Part shown: positions 4,501-62,782 of the stretch, piece after piece
Numbering within the stretch: the stretch's first letter is position 1
Layout: each line of letters opens with the position of its first letter
Assembly: GCA_038319515.1 (NCBI GenBank)
Contig: JBBQDH010000002.1
Coordinates: forward strand, 3,318-67,317
DNA length: 64,000 nt
Direction: 5' to 3'
DNA from: Bryobacterales bacterium
GTDB lineage: Bacteria > Acidobacteriota > Terriglobia > Bryobacterales > Bryobacteraceae
Made by a program: the position numbers and the translations under genes
Notes under the pieces: model-generated
What the model was told of the DNA's origin: nothing
The model's database searches: none
The model's input: only the letters and a program-made list of their open reading frames with translations

Positions 4501-5984
4501 GCGGCGGATTCCATAACAGCCAGTTTCATAATTTGTTCCTGTGTACAGCCGCGCGGCAGTTCGCCGGAGAGCCTGCCCTGCCGCATGACGACGATGCGGT
4601 CGGCAACGTGAAGGAGTTCGGGCAGCTCAGAGCTCACCATCAGAATGGCCGCGCCGGCGCGGGCGAGTTCACTCATCAGTTCGAAGACTTCTGATTTTGC
4701 ACCGATATCGATGCCGCGGGTGGGTTCGTCAAAAAGAAAAATGCCGGCCTCACGGAAGAGCCATTTCGCGATGACGACCTTCTGTTGATTGCCGCCGCTG
4801 AGCGTGCCGGCGAGCTGCGCGGGGGACGCTGCTTTGAGGCGCATCTTCGCGCCGAGTTCGGTCGACAGCCTGTTCTGGGCTTTGAGGTCGAGAAAGCCGA
4901 AGCGGCTGATACGCTCCACATTCGCCATGGTGACGTTGGCGCCGATGGGCAGGCGCAGGGCAAGGCCGGAAACCTGGCGGTCTTCGGTGACGAGCGCGAT
5001 GCCCGCTTTCACGGCGTCGCGCGGGGATTTGATTTGGGCAGGTTTGCCGTGGATGAGGATCTGGCCGGAGTCAATCGCGTCCATGCCGAAGATGGCGCGG
5101 CAGAGTTCGGTACGCCCTGCGCCGATGAGGCCCGCCATGCCTGTGATCTCGCCCTTGCGCAGCGTGATGGAAACGTCTTTCAGGTTCGAAGCCGCCACGC
5201 TGATACCGCGCACTTCCAGCGCCGGTGCGCCGGGGGCAAGGTGTTCGCGCTGGTAGATTTGCGCGACCTCGCGGCCCACCATATGGCGGATGAGCAGGTC
5301 GGTCGGAATGTCGGCCAGGTCGCCTGTATGGACCATGCTGCCATCACGCAGAACCGTAACTTTATCTCCGATGGCGCGGAGCTCTTCCATGCGGTGGGTG
5401 ATGTAGATGATGCCCATTTTGCGGGCCTTCAGATCACGCACGATGCGGAAGACCTGTTGCGTTTCTGTGTCCGAAAGAGAGGACGTTGGCTCGTCGAAGA
5501 TCAGCAAGCTGGACCCGTGCTGAATGGCCCGGCAGATTTCCACCATCTGGCGGCCCGCGGGGGTGAGGCGTCCCACGCGCCATTCGGCATTGAGGGGGAA
5601 GTTGTACTGCTCGATGAGGGCGCGCGCTTTTTCGGTGATCTCGCGGCGATTCACCCAGCCGAACGGAGCGCGCGGTTCGCGACCGAGGAAGATGTTCTCA
5701 GCCACCGTCATATGTGGGGCGAGAAGTGACTCCTGGTTGACCATCGCGATGCCCATGGCGGCGGCTTCAGCGGGGGAGCGAAGGAAGACTTCCTGCCCGT
5801 TCCAGAGCATGCGGCCGACGTCGCGCTGCACGATGCCGGCCACGATTTTCATGAGCGTGGATTTGCCGGCGCCATTCTCGCCGAGCAGCAGGTGGACCTC
5901 GCCTGCATTGACGGAGAGGCTCCCCTTGCGGAGAGCGGTGACGCCGCCGAAACGCTTTTCTATGTCCTGGAGTTCAAGCAGCAC
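4497..5984 (-). CDS. sugar ABC transporter ATP-binding protein, duplicated NBD (RbsA-like)
   Basis: 495 aa. Walker A GENGAGKST, Walker B LLIFDEPT, a second NBD with GLIGAGRTE, signature LSGGNQQKV and FLFDEPTRGID. Confidence 0.9.
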   Translation of the reverse strand: MLLELQDIEKRFGGVTALRKGSLSVNAGEVHLLLGENGAGKSTLMKIVAGIVQRDVGRMLWNGQEVFLRSPAEAAAMGIAMVNQESLLAPHMTVAENIFLGREPRAPFGWVNRREITEKARALIEQYNFPLNAEWRVGRLTPAGRQMVEICRAIQHGSSLLIFDEPTSSLSDTETQQVFRIVRDLKARKMGIIYITHRMEELRAIGDKVTVLRDGSMVHTGDLADIPTDLLIRHMVGREVAQIYQREHLAPGAPALEVRGISVAASNLKDVSITLRKGEITGMAGLIGAGRTELCRAIFGMDAIDSGQILIHGKPAQIKSPRDAVKAGIALVTEDRQVSGLALRLPIGANVTMANVERISRFGFLDLKAQNRLSTELGAKMRLKAASPAQLAGTLSGGNQQKVVIAKWLFREAGIFLFDEPTRGIDIGAKSEVFELMSELARAGAAILMVSSELPELLHVADRIVVMRQGRLSGELPRGCTQEQIMKLAVMESAA

Positions 5985-6004
5985 CGAAGCGCTAGTTTAT
6001 CGCA

Positions 6005-6085
6005 CTACTTTGAAACAACCAGCAGCACGAATGAGCCAGGCCTCAGGGTGCGGACCAGAACCTGACGGGGTCGGCGTTGGGCTTC
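6005..6085 (-). pseudogene. ghost 3' end of a YncE-like beta-propeller gene (frameshifted relic)
   Basis: The minus-strand reading gives KPNADP, then a 1-nt deletion, then VRTLRPGSFVLLVVSK-stop. The intact gene 7376..8377 ends KPNADPAKPPVRTMKPGSFVLLVVSQ-stop. No upstream body of the gene is present. Confidence 0.7.
6011..6085. repeat. left copy of imperfect ~75-nt direct repeat
   Basis: Hand alignment with 7382-7457 gives about 65 identical of 76 columns with one 1-nt indel. Shared blocks are tgaaacaaccagcagcacgaatga, ggtgcggacc and gcgttgggcttc. Confidence 0.8.
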
Positions 6086-6235
6086 CCAAGGCGATGGTCG
6101 TGAGCTGTTCCCCAGGCTTTGTGGTTTCTTATACACTTTAATGCAGCTTAATATTGACAGTAAAACCAGTACAAGCTGGTTTCGAAACGGCGACATCACC
6201 TTAATCTGATCAGGTAACGCCAAAGAGTGGTAAAA

Positions 6236-6553
6236 GTGAAACACAAAAGCCAATCTTTACTGGTTCATCTCGCGGCATTAGTAACGTCGTGCGTTTTTGG
6301 CGTGGGTATCGCCAACGCCACCTGTGGCCAAAATACCGGCTACGCATGTACAGGCACATACGGCGCAGGTGATGCTTGTGCGTGGCCCTGGACTTGTTAC
6401 GTGGCGGAATGTCAGTTCTCAGCGAGCACATGCTACAGTTCCCCGGGCGGAGGGATCGGCACTCCCTGCATCGACGGGAATTGCGGTGTAACTCAATGTG
6501 TGATTTTTCAACCTTCTAACCTGGGTAGCTGGTGCGCGTGCGGTAACTGTTAG
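6236..6553 (+). CDS. small secreted cysteine-rich protein (12 Cys in a ~77-aa mature part), unknown family
   Basis: ORF 6227..6553 has only GTG starts (6227, 6236); AGAGTGG lies just upstream of 6236. Sec-type leader KHKSQSLLVHLAALVTSCVFGVGIANA, then TCGQNTGYACTGTYGAGDACAWPWTCYVAECQFSASTCYSSPGGGIGTPCIDGNCGVTQCVIFQPSNLGSWCACGNC. Lies in an AT-rich patch. Confidence 0.6.
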   Translation: MKHKSQSLLVHLAALVTSCVFGVGIANATCGQNTGYACTGTYGAGDACAWPWTCYVAECQFSASTCYSSPGGGIGTPCIDGNCGVTQCVIFQPSNLGSWCACGNC

Positions 6554-6580
6554 CTGACTACGAAGAAGAGGATCTAAGTT

Positions 6581-7372
6581 ATGAAGAAAACGGTAATTTT
6601 TATCGTGGCGATTGGCATGGCTGTTTCGTATCTGGCCACACGTCAAAGTATTGTTTCGGCGCAGTCTCCCGCGGCGTTCACGCAGGTGTACAACATCTCC
6701 TGGAGAAACCTGGAAAATCCTGGAAAGAACAAGGACGACCGGGAAGTTCTCGCTCAGAAGGCTGATGGCTCAACCAGCCACGCGTCAACCTTTGCCGGTT
6801 CACCCGATCTGGTAAACCGGGCCATTGAATTGGCAACGGGAGAAAGGATCGATGTCAACGATCTTCTGAAAATGAAGAGCACACACTACGCGACTCCTGA
6901 TGTTGTCACGGCCCGAAAGGTCAATCGGCTCACGCCGGCTGCGGATTGCAGTAATTTCAAGGAGAGGGAAGACAACAAACCGGGTCGGGTCTTATTGGGA
7001 AATTTCACATTTCTGAATCATCCGGTAAAGAGGTTTACTGTTACTTTTCAGGCAAACAGTGGAGACCGGATACGCGTAACATCCAGTTACGCTTCTGATT
7101 TGAATTGTGCTGAAGTGGATCGGCTGGAGGAAACTCTCGAGCCTGGAACGGAACGGGTTCTTAAGACTCAGTCGCGCTCCGCTTCCGTGATCACGTCGGG
7201 GCCGCCGGATGAGAAGTATTTCAATATTCCTTCTGATTATCTCGAGGTGCCGCCGAGTACGCTCAACATTGCCTGGGGTAAGCACTTCGGCGTTGATGCA
7301 GACCAGCACATGATCGACGGGTGGGTCAATGTGCTGGACAAAAAGTACTACGAGGCGCAAAAGAAGCAGTAG
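6581..7372 (+). CDS. secreted hypothetical protein (263 aa)
   Basis: ATG preceded by GAAGAAGAGGA. Signal peptide MKKTVIFIVAIGMAVSYLATRQSIVSAQS. I recognise no motif. Lower GC than surroundings (line 6961-7020: 28/60 by hand). Starts 27 nt after the Cys-rich ORF. Confidence 0.7.
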   Translation: MKKTVIFIVAIGMAVSYLATRQSIVSAQSPAAFTQVYNISWRNLENPGKNKDDREVLAQKADGSTSHASTFAGSPDLVNRAIELATGERIDVNDLLKMKSTHYATPDVVTARKVNRLTPAADCSNFKEREDNKPGRVLLGNFTFLNHPVKRFTVTFQANSGDRIRVTSSYASDLNCAEVDRLEETLEPGTERVLKTQSRSASVITSGPPDEKYFNIPSDYLEVPPSTLNIAWGKHFGVDADQHMIDGWVNVLDKKYYEAQKKQ

Positions 7373-7375
7373 GTT

Positions 7376-8377
7376 TCACTGTGAAACAACCAGCAGCACG
7401 AATGAACCCGGCTTCATGGTGCGGACCGGGGGCTTGGCGGGGTCTGCGTTGGGCTTCATGTCGTACTCGGCGGCGGGCAGGAAGATCTTCTTCGTCTTCG
7501 GGTCCATTCCCATGGTCTTGGCACCGGCCTGTGTGGTGAGAGCGCCGCCTTCATAGACGTCGGCGGACTTCTGCAGGAACGTGTTCAGAACACCCTGCCC
7601 GGTAGACACGAGGACGGTCTTGGTGGCTGCGTCGAACTCCGCCCAGTCAGCGCCGGTGCCGATGGGGAAGCTGGTGATGACCTTGCCGGACTTCGCGTCC
7701 ATCACGACCATCTTCGGTTCCTTGCGGCAGGCGATGAAGAGCCGACTGGTCTTCGCATCGTAGGCAAGACCGGTGGGGGTCTCGGCAATGCCGATGGGAT
7801 AACGGTGTTTCACTTCGAGCGATTTGGGGTCGAAGGCCACTACTTCAGCGGTGTCTTCGCTGTTGACGTAATAGAGGCCGTCGCTGCCTTTGATGGCCTG
7901 TTCGCCGTCGCCTGCCAGCTTCACGGTTCCTGCCACTTCTCCGGTCTTTGCGTCGATGGCGGTGATGTCGTGCGAGCCATGGTTGTTGGTGAAGACGCGG
8001 TTGGTGGCGGCGTCGTACCAGATGCCATCCGGCCCCTTGCCGACATCAATCTTTTTGATGAGTTTCAGGGATTCCGGCTCGAACATGCTGACTTTGTTTT
8101 CGCGGCCGTTGCTGGTGAAGCCGTGTTTTTCGCCGGGCGCGATGGCTACGCCGTGCACGCCTGGTGTATCCGGGATGGTGCCGATGAGCTTACCGTTATC
8201 GGCGTCGACTACCTCCACTTGTGTGGCGTGTGAGATGTAGACGCGGCGGGCGGCGCTGTCGACAGTCACGTAGTCCCAGCCGCCTGTGCCCGGCAGCGGG
8301 TAGCGTTCAATAATTTTGTAATCTGCTGCGCCTGACAGCGAAACCATTAAAAACAATCCGGTTACAACGCTTTTCAT
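7376..8377 (-). CDS. YncE-like / YVTN-family beta-propeller repeat protein, secreted
   Basis: 333 aa. Signal peptide MKSVVTGLFLMVSLSGAA. Repeated ~40-aa units (GGWDYVTVD..., GVHGVAIAP..., GPDGIWYDA..., PTGLAYDA...) are typical of YVTN/YncE seven-bladed propellers. Confidence 0.8.
   Translation of the reverse strand: MKSVVTGLFLMVSLSGAADYKIIERYPLPGTGGWDYVTVDSAARRVYISHATQVEVVDADNGKLIGTIPDTPGVHGVAIAPGEKHGFTSNGRENKVSMFEPESLKLIKKIDVGKGPDGIWYDAATNRVFTNNHGSHDITAIDAKTGEVAGTVKLAGDGEQAIKGSDGLYYVNSEDTAEVVAFDPKSLEVKHRYPIGIAETPTGLAYDAKTSRLFIACRKEPKMVVMDAKSGKVITSFPIGTGADWAEFDAATKTVLVSTGQGVLNTFLQKSADVYEGGALTTQAGAKTMGMDPKTKKIFLPAAEYDMKPNADPAKPPVRTMKPGSFVLLVVSQ
7382..7457. repeat. right copy of imperfect direct repeat (functional 3' end of the beta-propeller gene)
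   Basis: See 6011-6085; the offset between the two copies is 1371 nt. Confidence 0.8.
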
Positions 8378-8447
8378 ATTCGAATTCTCCAGGTCAAGCG
8401 TGGCAGGCGGAACTGAAATTTCGCTGAATGAACGTTCACCGATCGCT

Positions 8448-9368
8448 TCAGCCCATCAGCTGGATGCTTTGGTCGATGAGCTTGCCGTTTTCTTCCCAGA
8501 CGTCGCCGTCGCCTTCCCATTCGATGGAGAAGTAGCCTTTATAACCCGCATTCTTTGCGATGGCGAAGGTGCGTTTGAGATCGGCATGGTAAGTCTTGCC
8601 GCCGTCGATTTCATCGTCCTTCACGTGCGAAATGTTGTAGGCGCGTTTAAAGAGGCCAGCCATGGCGGCGTAGTTGTAAGGAGCGTCGCCCTTCAGCATG
8701 GTGTTGCAGAAATCGGGCAGGGCGCGCAGCCACGGGTGGCGGGCCTGATCAAGAACTTTGGTGATGAAGAGGGCATCCTCTGTTTTCGGATCGTCATTTT
8801 CCAGATTGATGACGACGCCTTTCGACGCCCCGTATTCGGCGACGGGGAAGAGGGACGTTGTGGTGAGGCTGAGATCAGGAGTGGCTGTCTTATCGCCCTG
8901 AATGTGAATGCGAACGCCGGGGCAATCGACGGCAACCGCGATATCGACCCATTTCTTCGCGTTGTCGATGGCGAGCGTGCGTTTCGCGGGGTCGGGATCG
9001 TACATGCTTGCGCCTACGCTGGTGGGGATGTTCACGATGCGGGACCCCGCGGCTTTCACGGCGTCGCGCAGTTCGTTCAGGTAGGCGGGTTCGGTGGATG
9101 GGAAGTGCTGGCCGAGCAACTCCACGTTGTGAACCTTGTATTTCTCCGCCATGCGCGCGGCGAAGTCTTTCAGGGCGATGAATTTGGCATCCGGATTACG
9201 CTTGCGGTTGTTGGGGGTGTCGATCAGGGAGCGGAAGGAGTAAGAGGCGATCGCGATACGCGCCGGCGGGTCCGTGGGGAAACGGAAGTTCGGGGGCGCC
9301 GGGGCGGCCTGCGCGCTGGTACTGAGGGCGAGAGTGGAGGTGATCAGAAAGTCACGGCGGGTCTGCAT
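8448..9368 (-). CDS. Tat-signal sugar phosphate isomerase/epimerase (xylose isomerase-like TIM barrel) protein
   Basis: 306 aa. Leader MQTRRDFLITSTLALSTSAQA. Body with VHNVELL..., VRIHIQGD..., VINLENDD..., YFSIEWEG is a TIM-barrel sugar isomerase-like pattern. Confidence 0.8.
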   Translation of the reverse strand: MQTRRDFLITSTLALSTSAQAAPAPPNFRFPTDPPARIAIASYSFRSLIDTPNNRKRNPDAKFIALKDFAARMAEKYKVHNVELLGQHFPSTEPAYLNELRDAVKAAGSRIVNIPTSVGASMYDPDPAKRTLAIDNAKKWVDIAVAVDCPGVRIHIQGDKTATPDLSLTTTSLFPVAEYGASKGVVINLENDDPKTEDALFITKVLDQARHPWLRALPDFCNTMLKGDAPYNYAAMAGLFKRAYNISHVKDDEIDGGKTYHADLKRTFAIAKNAGYKGYFSIEWEGDGDVWEENGKLIDQSIQLMG

Positions 9369-9396
9369 GCAGTTTGTAATTTACACTACGGGAACC

Positions 9397-9732
9397 ATGT
9401 CACAATTCGCGAAAACACCCGAACCGCCCTACTATGCGGTGATCTTCACGGCGCAGCGAACACCCGTGGATGGGGGCTACGCGGAGACGGCCGACCGGAT
9501 GGTGGAACTGGCTGCGGCGATGCCAGGGTATCTGGGGATTGAGAGCGCGCGGGGTGCGGACGGGTTCGGGATCACGGTGAGCTACTGGGCCAGCGAAGAG
9601 GCGATAGTGAACTGGAAGCGGGAGGCGGAACACGAGCGGGCGCAGGGCGTGGGGAAGAGCGCCTGGTATGAGCATTACGAACTGCGCGTGGCGAAGGTGG
9701 AGCGGGCTTACAACGGGCCTGCCGGACGGTGA
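9397..9732 (+). CDS. antibiotic biosynthesis monooxygenase (ABM) family protein
   Basis: ORF 9274..9732 trimmed to MSQFAKTPEPPYYAVIFTAQRT...YLGIESARGADGFGITVSYWASEEAIVNWKREAEH. Small ferredoxin-like ABM fold pattern. An alternative ATG at 9367 would overlap the divergent gene start. Confidence 0.7.
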   Translation: MSQFAKTPEPPYYAVIFTAQRTPVDGGYAETADRMVELAAAMPGYLGIESARGADGFGITVSYWASEEAIVNWKREAEHERAQGVGKSAWYEHYELRVAKVERAYNGPAGR

Positions 9733-10353
9733 CTACTTAAGTTCCGGTTTGGCGCTGAAGCGGGCTCCCAGCGCGCCGCCTGCCGTGCAGACTCCCACCA
9801 CTGCTACGAACGCGAGCAGGAGGGTAAACAGCATGCCTGCGGCCAGCATGGGTGGATCGTTCACCACCTGGGCCATGCGGGGATCCTGTTGCACAAGCAG
9901 TTCCATGAATTGCTTGCCGGTGAAGGCGATGGTCAGTGTGAAAATGATCGCCATGCTGACGAAGGCGAGCACGCCGGTGATGGAGCCCAAACGCGCGCCT
10001 GCTTTGATGCTGAGCGTTTTGCCTGTGAGTCGGCGGTAGAGCAGAACGCCGCACCAGCCGGCGCCCAGCCACCAGAACACAAAGAAGAAATTCAGGCCCG
10101 GAATCATGTCGAGAAACATGATCGCGAGAGACATCAGAAATCCAACGCGCAGTGCAACCGGGTTGCTGAAACTGACCGGCATCTGTGAAAGCGTCGCCAG
10201 CAATTCGGCTTGCGGGGTCAGCGTGGGTGCAGGTGTCTGCACTGCAACAATCAGCTCCGGCTCTTCAGACATCTCAAACGTGGGTCTGCCGCAGCGATGG
10301 CAGAACCGGGCATCTTCAACGAGCTGTGTTCCGCAGGTGCAGTAGGCTGGCAC
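9733..10353 (-). CDS. zinc-ribbon domain membrane protein
   Basis: 206 aa. N-terminal CTCGTQLVEDARFCHRCG (CxC...CxxC zinc ribbon) followed by about 4 hydrophobic helices. Confidence 0.6.
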   Translation of the reverse strand: MPAYCTCGTQLVEDARFCHRCGRPTFEMSEEPELIVAVQTPAPTLTPQAELLATLSQMPVSFSNPVALRVGFLMSLAIMFLDMIPGLNFFFVFWWLGAGWCGVLLYRRLTGKTLSIKAGARLGSITGVLAFVSMAIIFTLTIAFTGKQFMELLVQQDPRMAQVVNDPPMLAAGMLFTLLLAFVAVVGVCTAGGALGARFSAKPELK

Positions 10354-10358
10354 AACTT

Positions 10359-10919
10359 CTAGTTTGACGCAGGGTCGCCGATGGAGGCAATTCCGATGTG
10401 CGTGCCGTCGTTCTTCCCGCGAATTCCGACGATCCGTTTGTGGCCGCCTTCCCTGAGCTCAAAGCGGACAGCGCCGTCCCGATCCGTGACCACCAGCCAG
10501 TTGGGCAGCTGGGTCCGGTACCAGGCGAGCACCTTCAAAGGCGAGTCCTGTGTGAACAGTTCCGCGGCTGCGAAGGCGACACTCCTGTCAGCCTTGCCGT
10601 CGGCAGAGACCCACTCGAAAGAGGCAACGCCGGAGTTCTTTTGGCGGGTGGCGCCGGGATAGACGGGCAGCCCGATGGTGGCGGGGTCCAGATCTTCGTG
10701 CGCGCGGATGCTGACGTTGCCGGCGGGTGTGGCAATGGAAAAGTCGGAAAAGTCATCGCCACCATGGCGGTGGGTGGTTTGCACGCGTACATTATTGGCG
10801 ATATAGAAGGCTGTGCCGACCGACACAATCACAATGGACACAAAGATAAAAAGTAGTACGCCCAACACACCGCCCCTGTTTGCGTTCCGGGTGGGTCGCG
10901 AATCTGAAGAAACTCTCAT
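10359..10919 (-). CDS. membrane-anchored hypothetical protein
   Basis: Lower part of the 657-aa track ORF, trimmed to ATG at 10919 (MRVSSDSRPTRNANRGGVLGVLLFIFVSIVIVSVGTAFYI...). One TM anchor and a soluble domain. Ends 5 nt upstream of the zinc-ribbon gene. The rest of the track ORF is antisense to the dehydrogenase gene. Confidence 0.6.
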   Translation of the reverse strand: MRVSSDSRPTRNANRGGVLGVLLFIFVSIVIVSVGTAFYIANNVRVQTTHRHGGDDFSDFSIATPAGNVSIRAHEDLDPATIGLPVYPGATRQKNSGVASFEWVSADGKADRSVAFAAAELFTQDSPLKVLAWYRTQLPNWLVVTDRDGAVRFELREGGHKRIVGIRGKNDGTHIGIASIGDPASN

Positions 10920-10994
10920 GAGCCGACCTCCAAAATTATTGTTACGCAATTCCGGCGGCGCGGGTTCGGGCAGGTTTGTGATAGCTTGCTCCTG

Positions 10995-11963
10995 ATGGAC
11001 CAAATTACCGTTGTTGTTCTGGGCGACCCGGCAGAGCCCGAGTTGCAGAAGCTGGAGGCGCTGCGCCCCGGGGTGAATTTCACCATATCGAAGACCGCCG
11101 ACGGACTGGGCGATGCGGTGCGGGATGCGCGCGTGCTGTTCACCACCATGGGCAACCGGAAGGAGGTCGGGCTGGTGCTGGAACGCGGGGCGAAGCTCGA
11201 ATGGATCCAGTCGCGCAGTGCGGGCCTGGACGGATTTCTGAGCCCGGAATTGATTGAGAGTCCGATTCCGCTCACCAATGGCAGCGGTGTGTTCAGCCAG
11301 TCTCTGGGAGAGTTCGTGTTGTTTGGCGCGTTGTATTTCGCGAAGGATATTCCGCGCATGCTGCGGGCTAAAGCGGCGCACAAGTGGGATGTCTTCGACG
11401 TGTGTGAGCTGAGCACGCAGACCATGGGCATTGTGGGCCATGGGGACATTGGGCGCGCCGCGGCGAAACGCGCGAAGGCGATGGGGATGAAGGTGCTGGC
11501 GTTGCGCCGTACTGTTACGCCGCGCCCGGGCGATGAGGATGTGGATCGCGTTTACGCAACGGCGGAGTTGCATGACATGCTGCCGGAGTGCGACTACGTG
11601 GTGGCCGCGGCCCCGTTGACGCCTGCGACGAAGCATATGCTGAGCACGGCGGAGTTTGGCCGGATGAAGCCTTCGGCGGTGGTGATGAATGTGGGGCGCG
11701 GTCCCGTGATTGACGAGGCTGCCCTGGCGGAAGCCTTGCGGAGCGGCGTGATTCGCGGTGCGGTGCTGGATGTGTTTGAAGTGGAACCGCTGGGCGGGGA
11801 CAGCCCGCTTTGGGATATGGACAATGTGCTGATTTCGGCGCATACGGCCGACCACACGCAAACGTGGCTCGAAGATTCGGTTGATTTTTTTATGGCGCAG
11901 TTTGCGCGTTGGCGCAGCGGGGAAGCGCTGCAGAATCTGGTGGATAAGCGCGCGGGGTATTAA
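10995..11963 (+). CDS. D-2-hydroxyacid dehydrogenase family (NAD-binding) protein
   Basis: MDQITVVVLGD... Rossmann motif GIVGHGDIGRAAAKRAKAMGMKV, plus VMNVGRGPVIDEAAL and LDVFEVEPL...NVLISAHTA, the catalytic pattern of D-isomer-specific 2-hydroxyacid dehydrogenases. Confidence 0.85.
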   Translation: MDQITVVVLGDPAEPELQKLEALRPGVNFTISKTADGLGDAVRDARVLFTTMGNRKEVGLVLERGAKLEWIQSRSAGLDGFLSPELIESPIPLTNGSGVFSQSLGEFVLFGALYFAKDIPRMLRAKAAHKWDVFDVCELSTQTMGIVGHGDIGRAAAKRAKAMGMKVLALRRTVTPRPGDEDVDRVYATAELHDMLPECDYVVAAAPLTPATKHMLSTAEFGRMKPSAVVMNVGRGPVIDEAALAEALRSGVIRGAVLDVFEVEPLGGDSPLWDMDNVLISAHTADHTQTWLEDSVDFFMAQFARWRSGEALQNLVDKRAGY

Positions 11964-12000
11964 GGCCGGCGACAGGATCGCCGCCGCCACGCGCCACGCT

Positions 12001-14409
12001 TTACGCGACCAACAGCAGTTTCTTGCTGCGCTTCGCATCGTACATGCGCTCGTCGGCTTTTTCGAGCAGTGCTTCGGCGTCGGAACCGTCGTCCGGATAG
12101 CGGGAGACGCCGGCGCTGATGGTGATGCGTGCAGGGCACTGCGATTCGGCGGGCAGGTTCCTGCCGATCTGGTCGAGGCGGGCGAGAATTTCCGGCAGGC
12201 TTTGGGTGGCATCCGGCATGATGAGCACGAACTCATCACCGCCCAGCCGTGCCGCGAAATCCCCGGCTCGGCAACTGCGGCGCAGAGCGCGACCAACGCA
12301 TTCCAGGATGCGGTTTCCGGCAATGTGACCATACTCGTCGTTGGCTTTCTTGAAGCCGTCCAGGTCCATCACGACAACGGTGAAATTCCCCTCCCGCCGC
12401 GCCGTGTTTGAGACCTCGGCTTCCAGGTGCCTGAAGAGCGAACGCGCATTATGGAGGCCGGTCAGTTCATCCGTATCGGCCGCGCTGTTGGCGCGTTCAA
12501 AGCGCACGGAGTTTTGAATCGCGATACCTGCCTTCGGCGCAATGGCAAGCAGAATTCGTCGGTCATCCTGACTGAAAGCCTCAGCCTTCAGGTGGTAGAG
12601 GGTGAGCACGGCGATGACGCCGTCACGGCCGCGAATCGGGACTGCAATAGCGGACCGGAGCGGCGTGACCATGCGGGGGTCATTGAGATAGCCGGGCTCC
12701 ACGGCAGGGTTGCCGTTGACGACAGGCAGATCGTTTTCCGCCACCCAGCCGGACAACCCCTGGCCCAGGGGAATTTCCAGAGAGCTGAGGAGCCTGAAGC
12801 TCTCACCCTTGACGAACTTTGGCACCAGTTTGTCGCCATCCAGCAGGTAGACGGCAATGGCATCATGGTTTACAATTTTGCCCAGGCGCACGGCAAGCAG
12901 GGCGAGGGTTTCTTCAAGGCTGAGTGAACTACCCAGATCGTTGGTGAGTTCCAGGAGCAACTGAAACTCGCGGCGTGCGCCGGAGATTGCCAGGCTGAAG
13001 TGTGCGGTGGCGGAGGGCGCACTCACCGGAGCGGATTCCGCGAAGCCGGTGGCGGGAGCCAGCCCGCGCTCCACTTTCACGTTGGAAGACAGCTTCACAT
13101 AATCCGCGGTCTCATCCCTTGCCTTCTGTTCGAGTTCCCGGAAACGGCGGTCGAGAATTGCCACAACAATGGGGTCGAACGCCTTGCCTGCTTCATCGCG
13201 GATGATCTGCATGGCGGCTTCCAGCGGCATGGCGGTGCGGTACTGGCGATTGGACGCAAGCGCATCCAGGCAATCCACGGCGGAGAGAATACGGGCTCCG
13301 ATGGGGATTTGCTCACCGATCAGGCCATCGGGATAGCCGGTGCCATCGTACTTTTCGTGGTGCGAGCGAACGATGGGGACGACGGGATAAGGGAAGTGAA
13401 CGCGTTCCAGAATTTCCGCGCCCACCACCGGATGGACCTTCATCTTTTCGAACTCATCCGGCGTCAGCTTGCCGGGTTTGGAGATGATGTACTCGGGCAC
13501 GGCGAGTTTGCCCACGTCATGCAGAAGAGCGGCGGCTTCGAGCGCCTGCATCTCAAGAGCGGACAGGTGCAGCTCTTTGCCGATTTCTGAAGCGTAGACC
13601 TGCACGCGGCGCAGGTGAGCGGCCGTGGTGTCGTCCTTGGCGTCAATCGCCAGGGCGAGGGTTTCGATGGTCCGAAGATGCAGTTGAGCCATCTCTGTAA
13701 TGTGCTTGCGCTGCTCTTCAAACCGGCCGAGGTAGACGCTGTAAGAACGGTAGACCAGGTAGAGCGGCGGAATCGCCACAATGAGCGCAGGCCAGCCCAT
13801 GTAGCGGTTCATGAAGTGCAGGCCGCCCGCAATCAGGCCGCCCACCAGGTACTGCGGGGAGGTCCACAGATAAGAGTCCCGCCAAATTGTCAGCAGGCCC
13901 GTGGATGAGGTCACGCTGATGATGCCGGCGACCGTGACGGTGTTCATGATGAAGTACAGCAGCGACGCCATGAGCAGGCTGAGCGCACCGGTGGGGTCGA
14001 CGTAGTTCAGCGTCTGCGACTGGAGCGCAAGGTCCGCAGCCATCACGGGAAAGGCCATGGCGAACATGTTGAACAGTAAGTGGTACCACTTCGGCCGCTG
14101 ATCCGCATGAATGAAGCACTGGCCGAGTGCGCTGGCCACGCCAACGATCATGCCGGATGCCCGCCCCAGATTCATCAGTGCCGCGAGGATCACAACATAG
14201 TTCATGGAAAGAGTAACGAAGATGCCGGGCAGGCGAATTTTGAGTCGGGACGCGAGGATTGCCGCGACGATGTAAAAGAACGTGCGACGCACGTTGTCAA
14301 TCGCCAGATCAGTGGAAGCGATAGAAGTGATGCTGAACCATGCCCCGCCCAGAACAATCAGAGCCCAGTAAAAATGGGCTTTGCGGGGCATTTGAATAAA
14401 TTCCGTCAT
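12001..14409 (-). CDS. membrane-bound HD-GYP / GAF / GGDEF multidomain c-di-GMP signalling protein
   Basis: Start chosen at ATG 14409, 7 nt after GGAGGT. N-terminal polytopic membrane domain. HD-GYP motifs LLHDVGK and HHEKYDGTGYPDGL. GAF-like segment. GGDEF domain with RLGGDEFVLI and an RAGD (RxxD) I-site five residues upstream. Confidence 0.9.
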   Translation of the reverse strand: MTEFIQMPRKAHFYWALIVLGGAWFSITSIASTDLAIDNVRRTFFYIVAAILASRLKIRLPGIFVTLSMNYVVILAALMNLGRASGMIVGVASALGQCFIHADQRPKWYHLLFNMFAMAFPVMAADLALQSQTLNYVDPTGALSLLMASLLYFIMNTVTVAGIISVTSSTGLLTIWRDSYLWTSPQYLVGGLIAGGLHFMNRYMGWPALIVAIPPLYLVYRSYSVYLGRFEEQRKHITEMAQLHLRTIETLALAIDAKDDTTAAHLRRVQVYASEIGKELHLSALEMQALEAAALLHDVGKLAVPEYIISKPGKLTPDEFEKMKVHPVVGAEILERVHFPYPVVPIVRSHHEKYDGTGYPDGLIGEQIPIGARILSAVDCLDALASNRQYRTAMPLEAAMQIIRDEAGKAFDPIVVAILDRRFRELEQKARDETADYVKLSSNVKVERGLAPATGFAESAPVSAPSATAHFSLAISGARREFQLLLELTNDLGSSLSLEETLALLAVRLGKIVNHDAIAVYLLDGDKLVPKFVKGESFRLLSSLEIPLGQGLSGWVAENDLPVVNGNPAVEPGYLNDPRMVTPLRSAIAVPIRGRDGVIAVLTLYHLKAEAFSQDDRRILLAIAPKAGIAIQNSVRFERANSAADTDELTGLHNARSLFRHLEAEVSNTARREGNFTVVVMDLDGFKKANDEYGHIAGNRILECVGRALRRSCRAGDFAARLGGDEFVLIMPDATQSLPEILARLDQIGRNLPAESQCPARITISAGVSRYPDDGSDAEALLEKADERMYDAKRSKKLLLVA

Positions 14410-14802
14410 GATCATTACCTCCGGGATGCGCTCTGGAAGGCGCCGCACCGGTACAAGGCGAGTGTGGCATCAATGGAGTGTAAGGAATAGTTATCTACTG
14501 TTAACCGGGGGTCACATACGGTACCCGTTACTGATGCGCGGGTTCCGCGAACAGGGTCATGGTACCGGAAGATCAATGCCGTCAATAGTCCCTGGTTATA
14601 TACGGGGAAAGGACTCCGGGTTTGGGCGTTGTCCAGCGTTTTCAATAAGGTTTTAAGTCAAGGTCGGGCCGGGAGCCTTCAAAGTGGAGTCCCGGCAGTA
14701 CTGCCTTCGTTCATCACCACGCTAACTGACGGCATCATATTCAAAGTCTGTTTGGCGTGCAAGACTCGCAACAGATCAAAAAAAGGAAGTCCCGGTGATC
14801 GT

Positions 14803-16434
14803 ATGAACTGGTACAAAAGCACGAAGAATCTGATTTATTGGCTGAGACCGCTGTGTCTCGTGTCATGCCTGACGTTGTTCGGGCTCAATTCCATGAATGC
14901 CGCGCAGGGGAGCGAGAAGCTGGCGCAGGAGCTTCGAAGGCCGGGCCAGGCTGGTCTGGTGGACGTGATTGTCACTTATAAAGTGGCGCCGGTTGCCAGG
15001 CACCACGACCGGGCACGACAGCTGGGCGGCAGTGTAATACATCAGTTCGAGGCGACGCGCGGGGCTCACTATCGGATGCCTGCGGGCGCGCTGGAGGCTC
15101 TGGCGGAAGACCCCGACGTGGACTTCGTTTCGCCGGACCGGCAGGTGCAGGGTTTGCTGAACTATACCAGGGCGGCGGTGGGTGCGGATGTTGCGCACGC
15201 CTCCGGGCATGACGGTGGGGGTGTTGGCGTTGCCGTCATCGACAGCGGCATCGCGGACATTGCCGATTTTAAGAATGGCAAGAACAGCCGGATCGTTTAT
15301 AGCCAGAGTTTTGTGGGGGGCACGGCGGACGACGAGTACGGGCACGGGACGCATGTGGCGGGAATCCTGGGGGCCTCCGGCGCAGGTGGCTACGGAGTCT
15401 ATGAGGGTGTTGCTCCCGCGGTCTCGATCATCAACCTTAAGGCGCTGGATAAGAATGGCACGGGCTCCGACAGCGCGGTGATCGCGGCCATCAATCGCGC
15501 GATTCAGCTCAAATCGAAGTACAACATCCGGGTGATCAATCTTTCGCTGGGCAGGCCCGTTTACTCCAGCTATACGCAGGATCCGTTATGTCAGGCGGCG
15601 GAAGCGGCGTGGAACGCAGGCATTGTGGTTGTCGTGGCAGCGGGTAATGACGGGCGCAACAACTCGAAGGGAACCAACGGCTATGCCACCATTACCGCGC
15701 CGGGGAACGACCCTTACGTGATTACCGTGGGCGCCATGAAAACGATGGGCACCATGGGCACCCTGGACGACAGGATCGCCAGCTACAGTTCCAAGGGTCC
15801 GACCATCCTCGATCATGTGGTGAAGCCGGATCTGGTGGCCCCGGGAAACCGCGTTGTTTCGGTTTTGCCCGCGGGTATGACCCTGTCGAAACAATACCCG
15901 ACTAACAGCTATGCCGGCGGGCATTTCCAGCTCAGCGGCACCAGCATGGCCGCGCCTGTTGTAAGCGCTGCCGCCGCCATGCTGATTGAAGACGATGACT
16001 CGCTGCGACCGGATGATGTGAAGGCGATTCTGATGACGACTGCTTCCAGGTCCTTTCCCACTTCGAGCTCGATCTGGGACGCTGCTACTAATACGACTTA
16101 CACCAGCTACTACGACCTGTTCACGGTTGGCGCGGGGTATCTGGATATTGTGTCGGCGCTGGTGAACGGCAGCCGGTCGTTGGGCTCAGCGAAATCTCCG
16201 ACAGCCTCCTGGGATGCGCTGAGTGGCAGGGTGGTTCTGTCGGGCATCTCGGGCGCGAATGTGGTTTGGGGATCCAACGTGGTGTGGGGCAGCAACGTCG
16301 TGTGGGGCAGCAACGTGGTTTGGGGTTCCGCCACGATGGCCGGGTTCAACGTGGTTTGGGGATCCAACGTGGTTTGGGGCAGTTCGCAGGAATCCGGGGA
16401 GGCCAACAAACTGGTGATCGCCGGCGAGAATTAG
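14803..16434 (+). CDS. secreted S8 (subtilisin-family) serine peptidase with C-terminal NVVWGS repeats
   Basis: ATG 14803 preceded by AAAGGAAG. Signal peptide and I9-like propeptide. Catalytic triad contexts VAVIDSGI, HGTHVAGI and GTSMAAP. The C-terminus carries six NVVWGS hexapeptides. Confidence 0.9.
   Translation: MNWYKSTKNLIYWLRPLCLVSCLTLFGLNSMNAAQGSEKLAQELRRPGQAGLVDVIVTYKVAPVARHHDRARQLGGSVIHQFEATRGAHYRMPAGALEALAEDPDVDFVSPDRQVQGLLNYTRAAVGADVAHASGHDGGGVGVAVIDSGIADIADFKNGKNSRIVYSQSFVGGTADDEYGHGTHVAGILGASGAGGYGVYEGVAPAVSIINLKALDKNGTGSDSAVIAAINRAIQLKSKYNIRVINLSLGRPVYSSYTQDPLCQAAEAAWNAGIVVVVAAGNDGRNNSKGTNGYATITAPGNDPYVITVGAMKTMGTMGTLDDRIASYSSKGPTILDHVVKPDLVAPGNRVVSVLPAGMTLSKQYPTNSYAGGHFQLSGTSMAAPVVSAAAAMLIEDDDSLRPDDVKAILMTTASRSFPTSSSIWDAATNTTYTSYYDLFTVGAGYLDIVSALVNGSRSLGSAKSPTASWDALSGRVVLSGISGANVVWGSNVVWGSNVVWGSNVVWGSATMAGFNVVWGSNVVWGSSQESGEANKLVIAGEN
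16258..16383 (+). repeat. in-frame 18-bp tandem repeats (4 + 2 copies) encoding NVVWGS
   Basis: aatgtggtttggggatcc, aacgtggtgtggggcagc, aacgtcgtgtggggcagc, aacgtggtttggggttcc, an 18-nt spacer (ATMAGF), then aacgtggtttggggatcc and aacgtggtttggggcagt. Copies differ mostly at synonymous positions. Confidence 0.9.
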
Positions 16435-60256: not shown

Positions 60257-62782
60257 TCACAGCATTCTGCTCAAAAGGAAGTATCCTGCCCATTGTTGGG
60301 GGTGTTGCCGGGCGCCCGGCATGTTCAGGGCTGCCAGTTGCGCATGCCGGAGGGCTCCTGCGGTTCCCCCGTCGGGAGAAGTCTTCAGGGAGCGATAGAA
60401 ATCGGTCAGCAGGGACTGCGCGGAATCGTCGGGGATATCCCAATGAGTCGCCATCACGGACATGGCTCCGGCGCCGATCCAGGCGCGCGTCAGGCCCATC
60501 AGGCCGACACTTGGCAGCGCTTCACCCTGCGCGGAATGGCAACCGTTCATCACCACCAGCTTGCAGTTGACGGCTCTTGCCACAATTTCTTTCGGGCCCA
60601 GAAGGCCCACGGCTCCGCCCGAGTCGAGACTGAGGGCGATCAGGCCGGACTGGAATTCGTCCTTCGCCGGGATAACGTGAGTCGCGAAGTGGATGATCGC
60701 AGGATTGGATTGCAACGCGGGTCGCACGCTGTCGATCTGTGCTTCGGGGCCGGTAAGCAGCCTGCGCGCCAATGGATTCCAGGCTTGTGAACAAGTCTCC
60801 AGTTCCGCGGCGGTATTCGGCAGTCTTGCAAGCGAGAGTCCAGCGGCGCCCTTTGCTCCCCGGTAACGGCTGTCCGCAGCGTTATAGACGGGATCGCCAA
60901 TACCCAGAAATGTACCCGTGGCCGGGATGGCATCCCTGGTGGCCAGCAGCGCGCCAGGAATGGTTTCCAGATCCGCTTTTTCGATCAGGTATACGGGACC
61001 GTGCGAGTCTTCGCCGACGGTCAAAGCGGCGAAGGGGAGTTCATACAGGGGTCCGTCCAGCTCCAGGCGCCAGTGCTTCCGGTCGAGAAAGGCGGCGGGT
61101 ATGGAACCAAACAGGTCCCGATACAAGCCTGCGCCGATGGATGAGGAGGGCTTGCCATCACGGAGGGCGGCGGCAAACTTCCGCACAGCGGTCTGGATTT
61201 GTTTTGCCGGGGCAAGGGGGAAGGCGACCACATGCCTGCGGTCAACCGCCCAGACCCATGAGCTGTGGGCCGAAATATGGAAGCTAAAAAGTGCCGTATC
61301 ATCCGGCAGCACCCGCCGGATATGACTCAGAGGCGGCTCCCGCGATTCCGTCGCCGGTCCGGCTGCATTCGCTTCATACCGGGCCAGTTCCACGCGAAGT
61401 GCTGTGGTCTGCGCATCCGCTTCTGAGGAACACGACCGCTTTTCGGTCGCCGGCGGCGACAGAGGACAGGGTTCCTCCACTCTTGCTGTAGCCACCGACC
61501 GACGGGCTTCTGAAGCGCCCCGAGCTACGGCGCTTCGCTCCAGCGTCTGGTATCGCGCCAGGCGTTCCCAGTATTCTGTCGGAAGCCTGGAGCGCCAGTC
61601 GTGGGTGCCCGGCAAAAGCGCGCGCAGGCTCCAGAGACGGTCCTGTTCGGCGGCATCGAATGTTTCCTGAAGGATCGAATTGTCGCCTGTTTTTTGCGCC
61701 AGCCGGTTACCCGCATCGACAAGCCCCTCGAAAACCATGCTCAGGCCGCTTTCGAATGCAACCCGGTCGCGGTCGGCAGGGACCATGTCGACCCGCATTT
61801 GCGACGCGATACGGCGCGAGTCCCGAAAATCGGCAAGGGCTCCTGTCAGGTCACCGCAGTCGAGTCGAAACTGCCCGCGATCAGCCAGAATCATCCAACG
61901 CGGAGTGCGACCCTGTTGTGCGGACAGCGCGGCGTCAAAGTATTCAGCGGCGGCGACCGGGTCGTTCTGTTTTGCCTTGAGTTTGGCAAGGCCCGAGAAA
62001 ATATTTGCGGAGGCGTTTAGTTTGTGCGCACGGACCAGCCGGAGCCCTTCATTGAGAGCCTGCTCCGCCTGGGGGAGGCGATTCGCTCTCAGGTAGGCCG
62101 TACCGAGCAGGCCGTAAATCATGGCTGTCTCCGTATAATTTTTTTCGCTTGTCAACTCAGCCAGAGCCATCCGGAAGTACGGCTCGGCCTCATCCATCCG
62201 CCCCAGCTTCGCCAGTGAAACTGCCAGTTGAAACCGCAACTTCGAGTGTGCCTCCGGCTCGAAATCCACTGCATTGCGGGCCAGTCCTTCTTTCGCGACG
62301 CGCATGGCCTGCTCATATTGCCCGATTTGCACGTAGAGGCTGGCAACATTATTGAGAGTCGCAGCCAGGGCTTTTCCGTCGTGGGCGCTCTCAGCGAGTT
62401 TTCGCGCCCGGGCGAACTCGTCAAACGCGGTCCGGAACTGCGCGGTGAGGATTGAGCAGGCACCAGCGCTGTTCCAGTCTCTTGCAGCTTCTCCTGGTAC
62501 TCCGGTTTGTTCAGCACGCCCGGCCGCGCGCAGGAAGACAGTCCGGGCATCTCCGTACCGGCCTGCCAAAAAACTGACCATAGCCTCATTCTTCAAGGCG
62601 ATGAGTTCTTTGGGGATAGCGGGCGCGGAGTTAGCAGAAGTTGCTGCGATTCGCGGTGAACCAGTCAGCAGAAGCGCCATCAGAGTCGAACCAATGATTG
62701 CGCTAACGGTCAGCGGATTTGCTGGCACCAGTACCTCAGGTAAGACCGGTGGTAGCCACAGGATTTCCTTATGGACTACCAC
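60257..62782 (-). CDS. TPR-repeat + CHAT (caspase-like peptidase) domain protein, probable N-terminal signal/anchor
   Basis: 841 aa, GTG start. Hydrophobic N-terminus (LTVSAIIGSTLMALLLTG). Several TPR-like units (GRYGDARTVFLRA..., IGQYEQAMRVAKEG..., LGRMDEAEPYFRMA...). C-terminal CHAT with His context IIHFATHV and Cys context VVMNGCHSAQG. Confidence 0.85.
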   Translation of the reverse strand: MVVHKEILWLPPVLPEVLVPANPLTVSAIIGSTLMALLLTGSPRIAATSANSAPAIPKELIALKNEAMVSFLAGRYGDARTVFLRAAGRAEQTGVPGEAARDWNSAGACSILTAQFRTAFDEFARARKLAESAHDGKALAATLNNVASLYVQIGQYEQAMRVAKEGLARNAVDFEPEAHSKLRFQLAVSLAKLGRMDEAEPYFRMALAELTSEKNYTETAMIYGLLGTAYLRANRLPQAEQALNEGLRLVRAHKLNASANIFSGLAKLKAKQNDPVAAAEYFDAALSAQQGRTPRWMILADRGQFRLDCGDLTGALADFRDSRRIASQMRVDMVPADRDRVAFESGLSMVFEGLVDAGNRLAQKTGDNSILQETFDAAEQDRLWSLRALLPGTHDWRSRLPTEYWERLARYQTLERSAVARGASEARRSVATARVEEPCPLSPPATEKRSCSSEADAQTTALRVELARYEANAAGPATESREPPLSHIRRVLPDDTALFSFHISAHSSWVWAVDRRHVVAFPLAPAKQIQTAVRKFAAALRDGKPSSSIGAGLYRDLFGSIPAAFLDRKHWRLELDGPLYELPFAALTVGEDSHGPVYLIEKADLETIPGALLATRDAIPATGTFLGIGDPVYNAADSRYRGAKGAAGLSLARLPNTAAELETCSQAWNPLARRLLTGPEAQIDSVRPALQSNPAIIHFATHVIPAKDEFQSGLIALSLDSGGAVGLLGPKEIVARAVNCKLVVMNGCHSAQGEALPSVGLMGLTRAWIGAGAMSVMATHWDIPDDSAQSLLTDFYRSLKTSPDGGTAGALRHAQLAALNMPGARQHPQQWAGYFLLSRML

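Follow-up and report, generated by a model that had tools for sequence, protein, structure and literature searches.

The ORF at 6236-6553 of the analysed DNA is, judged by its conservation, a real protein-coding gene that gene callers overlooked. The window, that is, the whole stretch of DNA analysed, comprises 64,000 nt of a Bryobacterales bacterium (GCA_038319515.1, contig JBBQDH010000002.1, positions 3,318 to 67,317). As far as its sequence tells, the product is a new sequence family within the secreted disulfide-rich mini-proteins, unusual in composition and tied to an obligate partner. By gene order, the small gene forms a conserved two-gene cassette with the 263-aa gene behind it, because on contig L004 a partner homolog comes next after the gene for P0003, the relative of the small protein.

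Small gene and its product

6236..6553, plus strand: small gene ORF; GTG start, TAG stop at 6551-6553; 105-aa precursor
6236..6319, plus strand: Sec-type signal peptide, 28 aa; n-region MKHKSQS, hydrophobic core LLVHLAALVTSCVFGVGI, cleavage between ANA and T (by inspection)
6320..6553, plus strand: mature mini-protein and stop codon; 77 aa, 7.8 kDa, pI 4.05, 12 Cys

The precursor read from GTG 6236 begins with MKHKSQSLLVHLAALVTSCVFGVGIANA, followed by 77 mature residues. The first-pass annotation had described 12 Cys with a particular spacing after a Sec-type leader, and translation reproduced this exactly (spacings of 7, 9, 5, 4, 6, 11, 4, 4, 11, 1, and 2 residues). The spacing showed no internal repeat regularity. 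The mature protein contains 13 Gly, 12 Cys (15.6%), 8 Thr, 7 Ala, and 6 Ser. Its charged residues are 2 Asp and 1 Glu; Lys, Arg, and His are absent, and the C-terminus is CACGNC. The earlier description of a Gly/Thr/Ser-rich, weakly charged protein with this end matched the computed composition. The C-terminal end of the window copy carries CxC (C100-A-C102) and CxxC motifs. Lys, Arg, and His are missing from both mature small proteins, the window copy and P0003, and each of the two has a pI of about 4. The probability of such an absence by chance is about 1e-5 per protein at ordinary residue frequencies. No CC doublet was found in either family member.

An alternative in-frame GTG is located at 6227. 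The start at GTG 6236 is supported because codons 1-4 parallel those of the L004 copy (GTG-AAA-CAC-AAA in the window, TTG-AAA-CAG-AAG in L004) and the sequence AAAGAG lies 8-9 nt upstream.

Conservation of the small gene

ORF length was uninformative in this GC-rich window, where 89 ORFs of at least 50 aa were found within the first 14 kb. A phmmer search of 1.84 billion representative proteins returned one match only, P0003 (94 aa, E 8.2e-18), with about 46-51% identity to the window protein depending on the method. All 10 Cys of P0003 aligned with Cys of the window copy, and 28 of the 59 non-Cys columns were identical. The two Cys absent from P0003 are C38 and the C-terminal C105. Both proteins share the leader end GV(G/T)(I/A)ANA, and residues Y36, W50, P51, Y55, P77, P93, and W99 are kept in P0003. 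The conserved block of the small protein reads GDAC-WP-TCYV-EC. The first-pass annotation would have given up the ORF if neither it nor its Cys pattern was conserved; the relative found has 10 of 10 Cys aligned.

The comparison of the window gene with the P0003 gene gave a pN of 0.37 and a pS of 0.72 (Nei-Gojobori; pS saturated), and the mature part alone gave 0.33 and 0.74. Two metagenome contigs, L002 (JGI 3300056749) and L003 (Logan SRR35815336), represent a strain 98.4% identical in nucleotides to the window. The small ORF is unbroken in both (1339-1656 in L002, about 300-617 in L003), and the sole change, A63V, is non-synonymous. The ORF is thus beyond chance, since the homolog keeps the frame, the leader, and the shared Cys, pN is about half of the saturated pS, and the ORF is intact in the 98.4% identical strain. 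By these ratios the small gene and the partner gene are both under purifying selection. The family consists of two distinct members only, each from an uncultured or poorly assembled source.

The NCBI, JGI, and Logan pipelines left the ORF uncalled in all three copies of the species, whereas P0003 was called on L004. A word-indexed search of 5.8 billion clusters with the small ORF gave zero matches, the query itself included; the profile form of the same search recovered P0003 alone. A scan of metagenome contigs gave one match, L001, which was discarded, as its GAGDACAWP segment is read in an alternative frame of a gene for 271 aa that runs on the opposite strand. The idea that the ORF arose by chance, or is a pseudogene decaying within foreign DNA, would fit the silence of the three pipelines, the GTG start, and the non-synonymous A63V, but is hardly credible against a homolog with conserved frame, leader, and Cys that was itself called as a gene, a pN far below pS, and an ORF whole in 3 of 3 copies of the species.

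Partner gene

6554..6580, plus strand: intergenic spacer, 27 nt, with the purine-rich ribosome-binding stretch GAAGAAGAGGA for the partner gene
6581..7372, plus strand: partner gene, ATG at 6581; 263-aa precursor with a Sec leader ending IVSA, cleavage before QS

The coordinates bear out the 27-nt gap to a co-oriented 263-aa ORF that had been described. The mature partner has 236 aa, a mass of 26.4 kDa, a pI of 6.3, and 2 Cys. The precursor has a single hydrophobic segment, at its N-terminus; beyond residue 30, the Kyte-Doolittle mean over 19 residues does not exceed 0.51. Among 5.8 billion clusters, the partner matched only near-identical copies of itself (P0001 from NCBI and P0002 from JGI).

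Contig L004 (NCBI GCA_040384425.1; 1,394 bp) carries the P0003 gene, with a DNA polymerase III delta-prime-like gene upstream of it. At 40 nt past the P0003 stop, an ORF starting with MKKVLFACTLVALGGLAFQMRKTQIVSAQS begins. It is 45% identical to the window partner over 126 aa, all that precedes the contig end (tblastn 7e-25). The IVSA/QS cleavage motif and C123 of the partner are conserved in this homolog, and the partner genes of the window and L004 gave a pN of 0.41 and a pS of 0.71. The public call of the homolog, at 937-1392, overlaps the end of the small gene. Its start is probably some 26 codons too early, because ATG 1015 yields a normal signal peptide and aligns with residue 1 of the window partner.

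Candidate promoter

6184..6210, plus strand: candidate ECF/sigma-E-like promoter GAAAC-N16-TCTGAT, 26 nt upstream of the GTG; a lead only

We liken this pattern to sigma-E/ECF promoters. It occurs once in the window, against an expectation of 0.05 chance matches, for a pattern picked after the sequence had been viewed. It is kept in L002, and GGAACTT-N16-CGTGTA occurs upstream of the L004 copy at about 605-633. A generic sigma-70 promoter scan returned nothing in this region. At 1040-2547 on the minus strand, about 4 kb from the islet that holds the cassette, a gene for an ECF sigma factor (Sigma70_r2/r4) precedes one for an RskA-type anti-sigma factor.

Export and processing

By inspection, the small precursor has the basic n-region, the h-region, and the small residues at -3 and -1 of Sec/signal peptidase I substrates. 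Its sole hydrophobic segment is the leader (Kyte-Doolittle 19-residue mean 2.19), and the ANA site is kept in P0003. One of the proteins encoded in the window, of 1,149 aa, combines a carboxypeptidase-regulatory-like domain with an outer-membrane beta-barrel, so the host has an outer membrane, and the Sec leader alone would deliver the mini-protein to the periplasm. The secretion proposed in the first-pass annotation therefore stands for export through the Sec leader; release to the medium does not follow, as such a leader guarantees the periplasm only.

The leader also contains a lipobox-like segment, LVHLAALVTS followed by C19 (residues 9-19, window 6260-6292), with K2 and K4 in the n-region. 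The rule used (PROSITE PS51257) requires [LIV][ASTVI][GAS]C behind a short h-region. The protein could then be a lipoprotein in this host, cut by Lsp before C19 (LVTS/C) into a lipid-anchored form of 87 aa with 12 further Cys. We consider this unlikely: although the PROSITE-style rule fits the window copy and the strain variant retains C19, P0003 has Val at the position of C19 and no lipobox, and the VFGVGIANA segment after C19 is a conserved signal peptide end.

Genomic context and mobility

6005..6090, minus strand: decayed end copy of the beta-propeller gene, last ~29 codons; left repeat arm, about 85% identical to 7380-7465
7376..8377, minus strand: YncE/PQQ-like beta-propeller gene, exported; convergent native neighbour with Pfam and NCBIfam matches, GC3 0.76; outside the cassette

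The cassette lies in an islet (6091-7375) of 50.9% GC in a window of 59.7% GC. The GC3 values of the small ORF (0.55) and the partner gene (0.59) are below those of both flanking genes (0.76), in line with the foreign look noted in the first pass. Across the window and L004, the cassette has 51-54% GC and a GC3 of 0.55-0.62, whereas the L004 flank has a GC3 of 0.39 and the neighbour gene there has 43% GC. In composition the cassette is thus foreign to either host. This points to horizontal transfer of the cassette between unrelated bacteria, because its 51-54% GC differs both from the 60% GC of the host and from the 43% GC of the gene in L004.

The islet is flanked by the two arms of an imperfect direct repeat, each about 88 bp long and about 85% identical to the other. 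The right arm (7380-7465) is the intact 3′ end of the beta-propeller gene. The left arm translates as ...VRTLRPGSFVLLVVSK and the C-terminus of the propeller as ...VRTMKPGSFVLLVVSQ. Judged by this repeat structure, the cassette entered at the end of the beta-propeller gene, either by insertion there or by recombination through that end. The ORFs beside the islet encode an ABC sugar-type ATPase (4902-5984), a permease-like protein, and the beta-propeller, and no integrase was found at the islet. The tRNA and Rfam scans of the window were empty, so the islet has no tRNA integration site or known riboswitch.

No propeller gene was found upstream of the cassette on L004, a contig that stops within the partner gene. 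The family is very rare: a scan of the contigs of 185,579 species-representative genomes with the family alignment gave no match. Both proteins were also without a match in viral contigs, phage records, and plasmid records. The propeller protein had relatives of only 37-41% identity among the genome contigs, in one Bacteroidetes MAG and one Acidobacteria MAG, and the cassette is absent from both.

The divergence between the window and L002 over 4902-13466 was very uneven. Only 3 differences were found in 6236-8411, which covers the cassette and the propeller gene. Divergence reaches 4.2% in the ABC ATPase gene (4902-5984) and is fastest, at 8.8%, in the segment 5985-6235, and 16 differences are clustered in the 250-bp bin from 11902. 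This unevenness suggests a recent recombination or sweep block spanning the cassette. The strain substitutions were dropped as a selection signal, as 3 non-synonymous and 0 synonymous changes (probability about 0.4 under neutrality) are too few. Elsewhere in the window, an 841-aa TPR and CHAT-domain (caspase-like) protein (60257-62782, minus strand) and a 601-aa subtilase (14629-16434, plus strand) are encoded; neither gene adjoins the cassette.

Family and structure searches

The first-pass annotation recognised no known family, and sequence searches against Pfam, NCBIfam, PHROGs, PADLOC, and PDB agreed, each ending without a match. Pfam returned no family for either mature small sequence at E up to 10 or for the precursor at E up to 1. 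For both cassette proteins, NCBIfam, PHROGs, and PADLOC gave empty or non-significant results and the PDB sequence profiles only chance-level matches (E 0.23 or worse for the small protein). The Cys-rich domains of Pfam-A (knottin-type inhibitors, granulin, hevein/CBM18, CBM1, TIL, Kazal, EGF, and WAP, among others) did not match. No homology to a toxin, immunity protein, inhibitor, or binding domain was detected in the Pfam, NCBIfam, PHROGs, PADLOC, and PDB searches. The label "novel" holds at the family level, as membership in a described family was not detected.

AlphaFold2 gave a pLDDT of 46 for the small protein (2-sequence alignment) and 32 for the partner alone, and both models were unusable. 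Foldseek found no match for the pLDDT-46 model, which is too poor for a fold search to inform. The Cys patterns of hevein, CBM1, EGF, and Kazal domains did not match the small protein. The Cys frameworks of granulin, snakin, hevein, hydrophobin, and Bowman-Birk proteins are characterised by CC doublets and were excluded, as neither member has one.

Comparison with known systems

Class II microcins are Gly-rich and often anionic, and some have disulfides. They are unmodified Gram-negative bacteriocins below 10 kDa, such as MccV and MccL; their double-glycine leader is removed by a PCAT/MFP/TolC exporter, and the cognate immunity protein usually spans the inner membrane (PMC12219008). The cassette resembles them in small size, a cognate second gene (the immunity gene in microcins), and mobile DNA. 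Microcin identity was rejected, as the leader is of the Sec type and ends in ANA and no PCAT or MFP gene is present in the islet or the adjacent ORFs. Immunity of the microcin type was also rejected, as the mature partner has no hydrophobic segment and is predicted to be soluble and exported.

Cis-defensins (CS-alpha-beta, e.g., xanthusin-1) have 3-4 disulfides, with an obligatory CxxxC paired with CxC, and follow the regex C-X(2,18)-C-X(3)-C-X(2,12)-C-X(4,17)-C-X-C; one of them comes from an unidentified Acidobacteria bacterium (PMC11561630). Like the mini-protein, they are small and carry a Sec signal; they are stabilised by disulfides, as is predicted for the mini-protein, and a C-terminal CxC (C100-A-C102) is shared. 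The mini-protein differs in having 10-12 Cys in 70-77 residues, no CxxxC, and no basic residues. Cis-defensin identity was rejected, as the regex matched neither member and no CxxxC occurs anywhere in them.

Enterocin P and lactococcin 972 are Sec-dependent bacteriocins of Gram-positive bacteria. They share with the cassette a Sec leader on a small protein, antagonistic in their case, and a small operon. They differ in having few or no Cys, a cationic nature, monoderm producers, and immunity of the membrane or ABC type. No search showed sequence similarity to Sec-dependent Gram-positive bacteriocins.

The actinomycete inhibitors tendamistat and SSI are secreted, acidic, disulfide-stabilised, beta-rich proteins of 70-110 aa that bind tightly. 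The mini-protein resembles them in Sec export, acidic nature, and size range. However, they have only 2 disulfides and no conserved 26-kDa partner, and neither a Pfam nor a PDB sequence match was found here. The granulin and snakin/GASA families of eukaryotes have 12 Cys, paired in six disulfides over a length of about 60-80 residues. The number of Cys in a similar length is the same, but their CC doublets are lacking here and there was no Pfam match. The 1.84 billion representatives contained no eukaryotic relative.

Proposed function

We infer with fair confidence that the Cys of the mini-protein form disulfides, five shared by the family plus C38-C105, because the Cys counts are even (12 and 10), the extra Cys are paired, conserved aromatic residues and Pro are interleaved as they would be in a folded core, and the periplasm is oxidising. 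The six disulfides suggested in the first pass from the even Cys count thereby gain indirect support. The function can be inferred only with low confidence. A tight binder in a protease-rich extracytoplasmic space is favoured because the mini-protein, presumably rigid, is acidic and free of Lys, Arg, and His.

The following model is proposed. The segment 6236..7372 would be a horizontally acquired two-gene operon. Its first gene would encode the 105-aa precursor, which would be exported by Sec and cleaved after ANA to give the acidic 77-aa product free of Lys, Arg, and His. In the oxidising periplasm, the product may fold compactly with the five family-wide disulfides and the C38-C105 bond of this lineage. 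The second gene would provide a co-exported soluble 26-kDa protein, the companion of the first in both known loci. The mini-protein may then be a rigid, protease-resistant binder outside the cytoplasm that acts with its partner.

Our favoured but tentative reading of this pair is an accessory antagonism module, in which the mini-protein would be the active component, as a binder or toxin, while the 26-kDa protein would serve in the periplasm as an immunity or helper factor. It is favoured because of the obligate pairing with a soluble exported protein, the patchy distribution, and the foreign composition. No outer-membrane export route is encoded in the islet, and this weighs against the antagonism model, since a toxin in the producer's own periplasm would need such a route. 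The mini-protein is also anionic, unlike most membrane-active antimicrobial peptides, which counts against the model as well. It is doubtful, though conceivable, that the pair founds an undescribed class of mobile, Sec-exported binary systems of bacteria with an outer membrane, with an anionic six-disulfide toxin or high-affinity blocker of new fold and a dedicated 26-kDa neutralising or delivering partner in the periplasm, unrelated to microcins, defensins, knottins, and any known bacteriocin.

The roles may be reversed: the 26-kDa partner would then be the active exported enzyme or toxin, which the mini-protein would bind tightly in the periplasm as an inhibitor or immunity protein. Taken by itself this is also doubtful, and it is nearly as plausible as the reading of the mini-protein as the toxin. 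The pair is strictly conserved and predicted to be co-transcribed. A Sec leader with no outer-membrane route fits a protector resident in the periplasm, and the composition free of Lys, Arg, and His fits protease resistance. Small rigid disulfide-rich proteins are typical inhibitors, and AprA/AprI, in which an exported hydrolase is encoded beside a small inhibitor, offers an analogue. However, the profiles of Pfam, NCBIfam, PHROGs, PADLOC, and PDB revealed no recognisable catalytic domain or motif in the partner. Immunity genes usually follow their toxin genes; in this cassette the small gene is the first of the two.

Two further readings are less likely than either the toxin or the inhibitor reading of the pair. 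The cassette might be a surface-binding or structural module without antagonism, attaching to polysaccharide, cell wall, ice, or mineral through a flat, uncharged face of aromatic residues, Thr, and Gly, with the partner as an accessory or anchor. The richness in Gly, Thr, Ser, Ala, and Cys, the conserved Y36, W50, Y55, and W99, and the near absence of charge agree with this, and fungal CBM1, hevein, and insect antifreeze proteins are similar in composition. We regard it as improbable, as the Pfam models of those modules gave no match at E values as high as 10, patterns for CBM1 and hevein in the style of PROSITE were unmatched, and the Cys spacing is irregular. A periplasmic metallothionein-like protein chelating Cu, Cd, or Zn with its Cys thiolates would account for the high Cys content, the lack of His, and the CxC and CxxC end of the window copy, but is very unlikely given the even Cys count with the extra Cys gained as a pair, the W, Y, and P conserved between Cys, the oxidising compartment, the absence of CxxC from P0003, and the absence of adjacent metal-resistance genes.

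Significance

Three public gene-calling pipelines overlooked a conserved gene, under purifying selection, with a GTG start and an atypical composition. It is rare for a bacterial protein to have five or six disulfides within fewer than 80 residues. If the fold of the mini-protein is new, it would add a stable, protease-resistant bacterial scaffold. Should the pair serve antagonism, bacteria with an outer membrane would have in it an alternative to the microcin route that depends on Sec.
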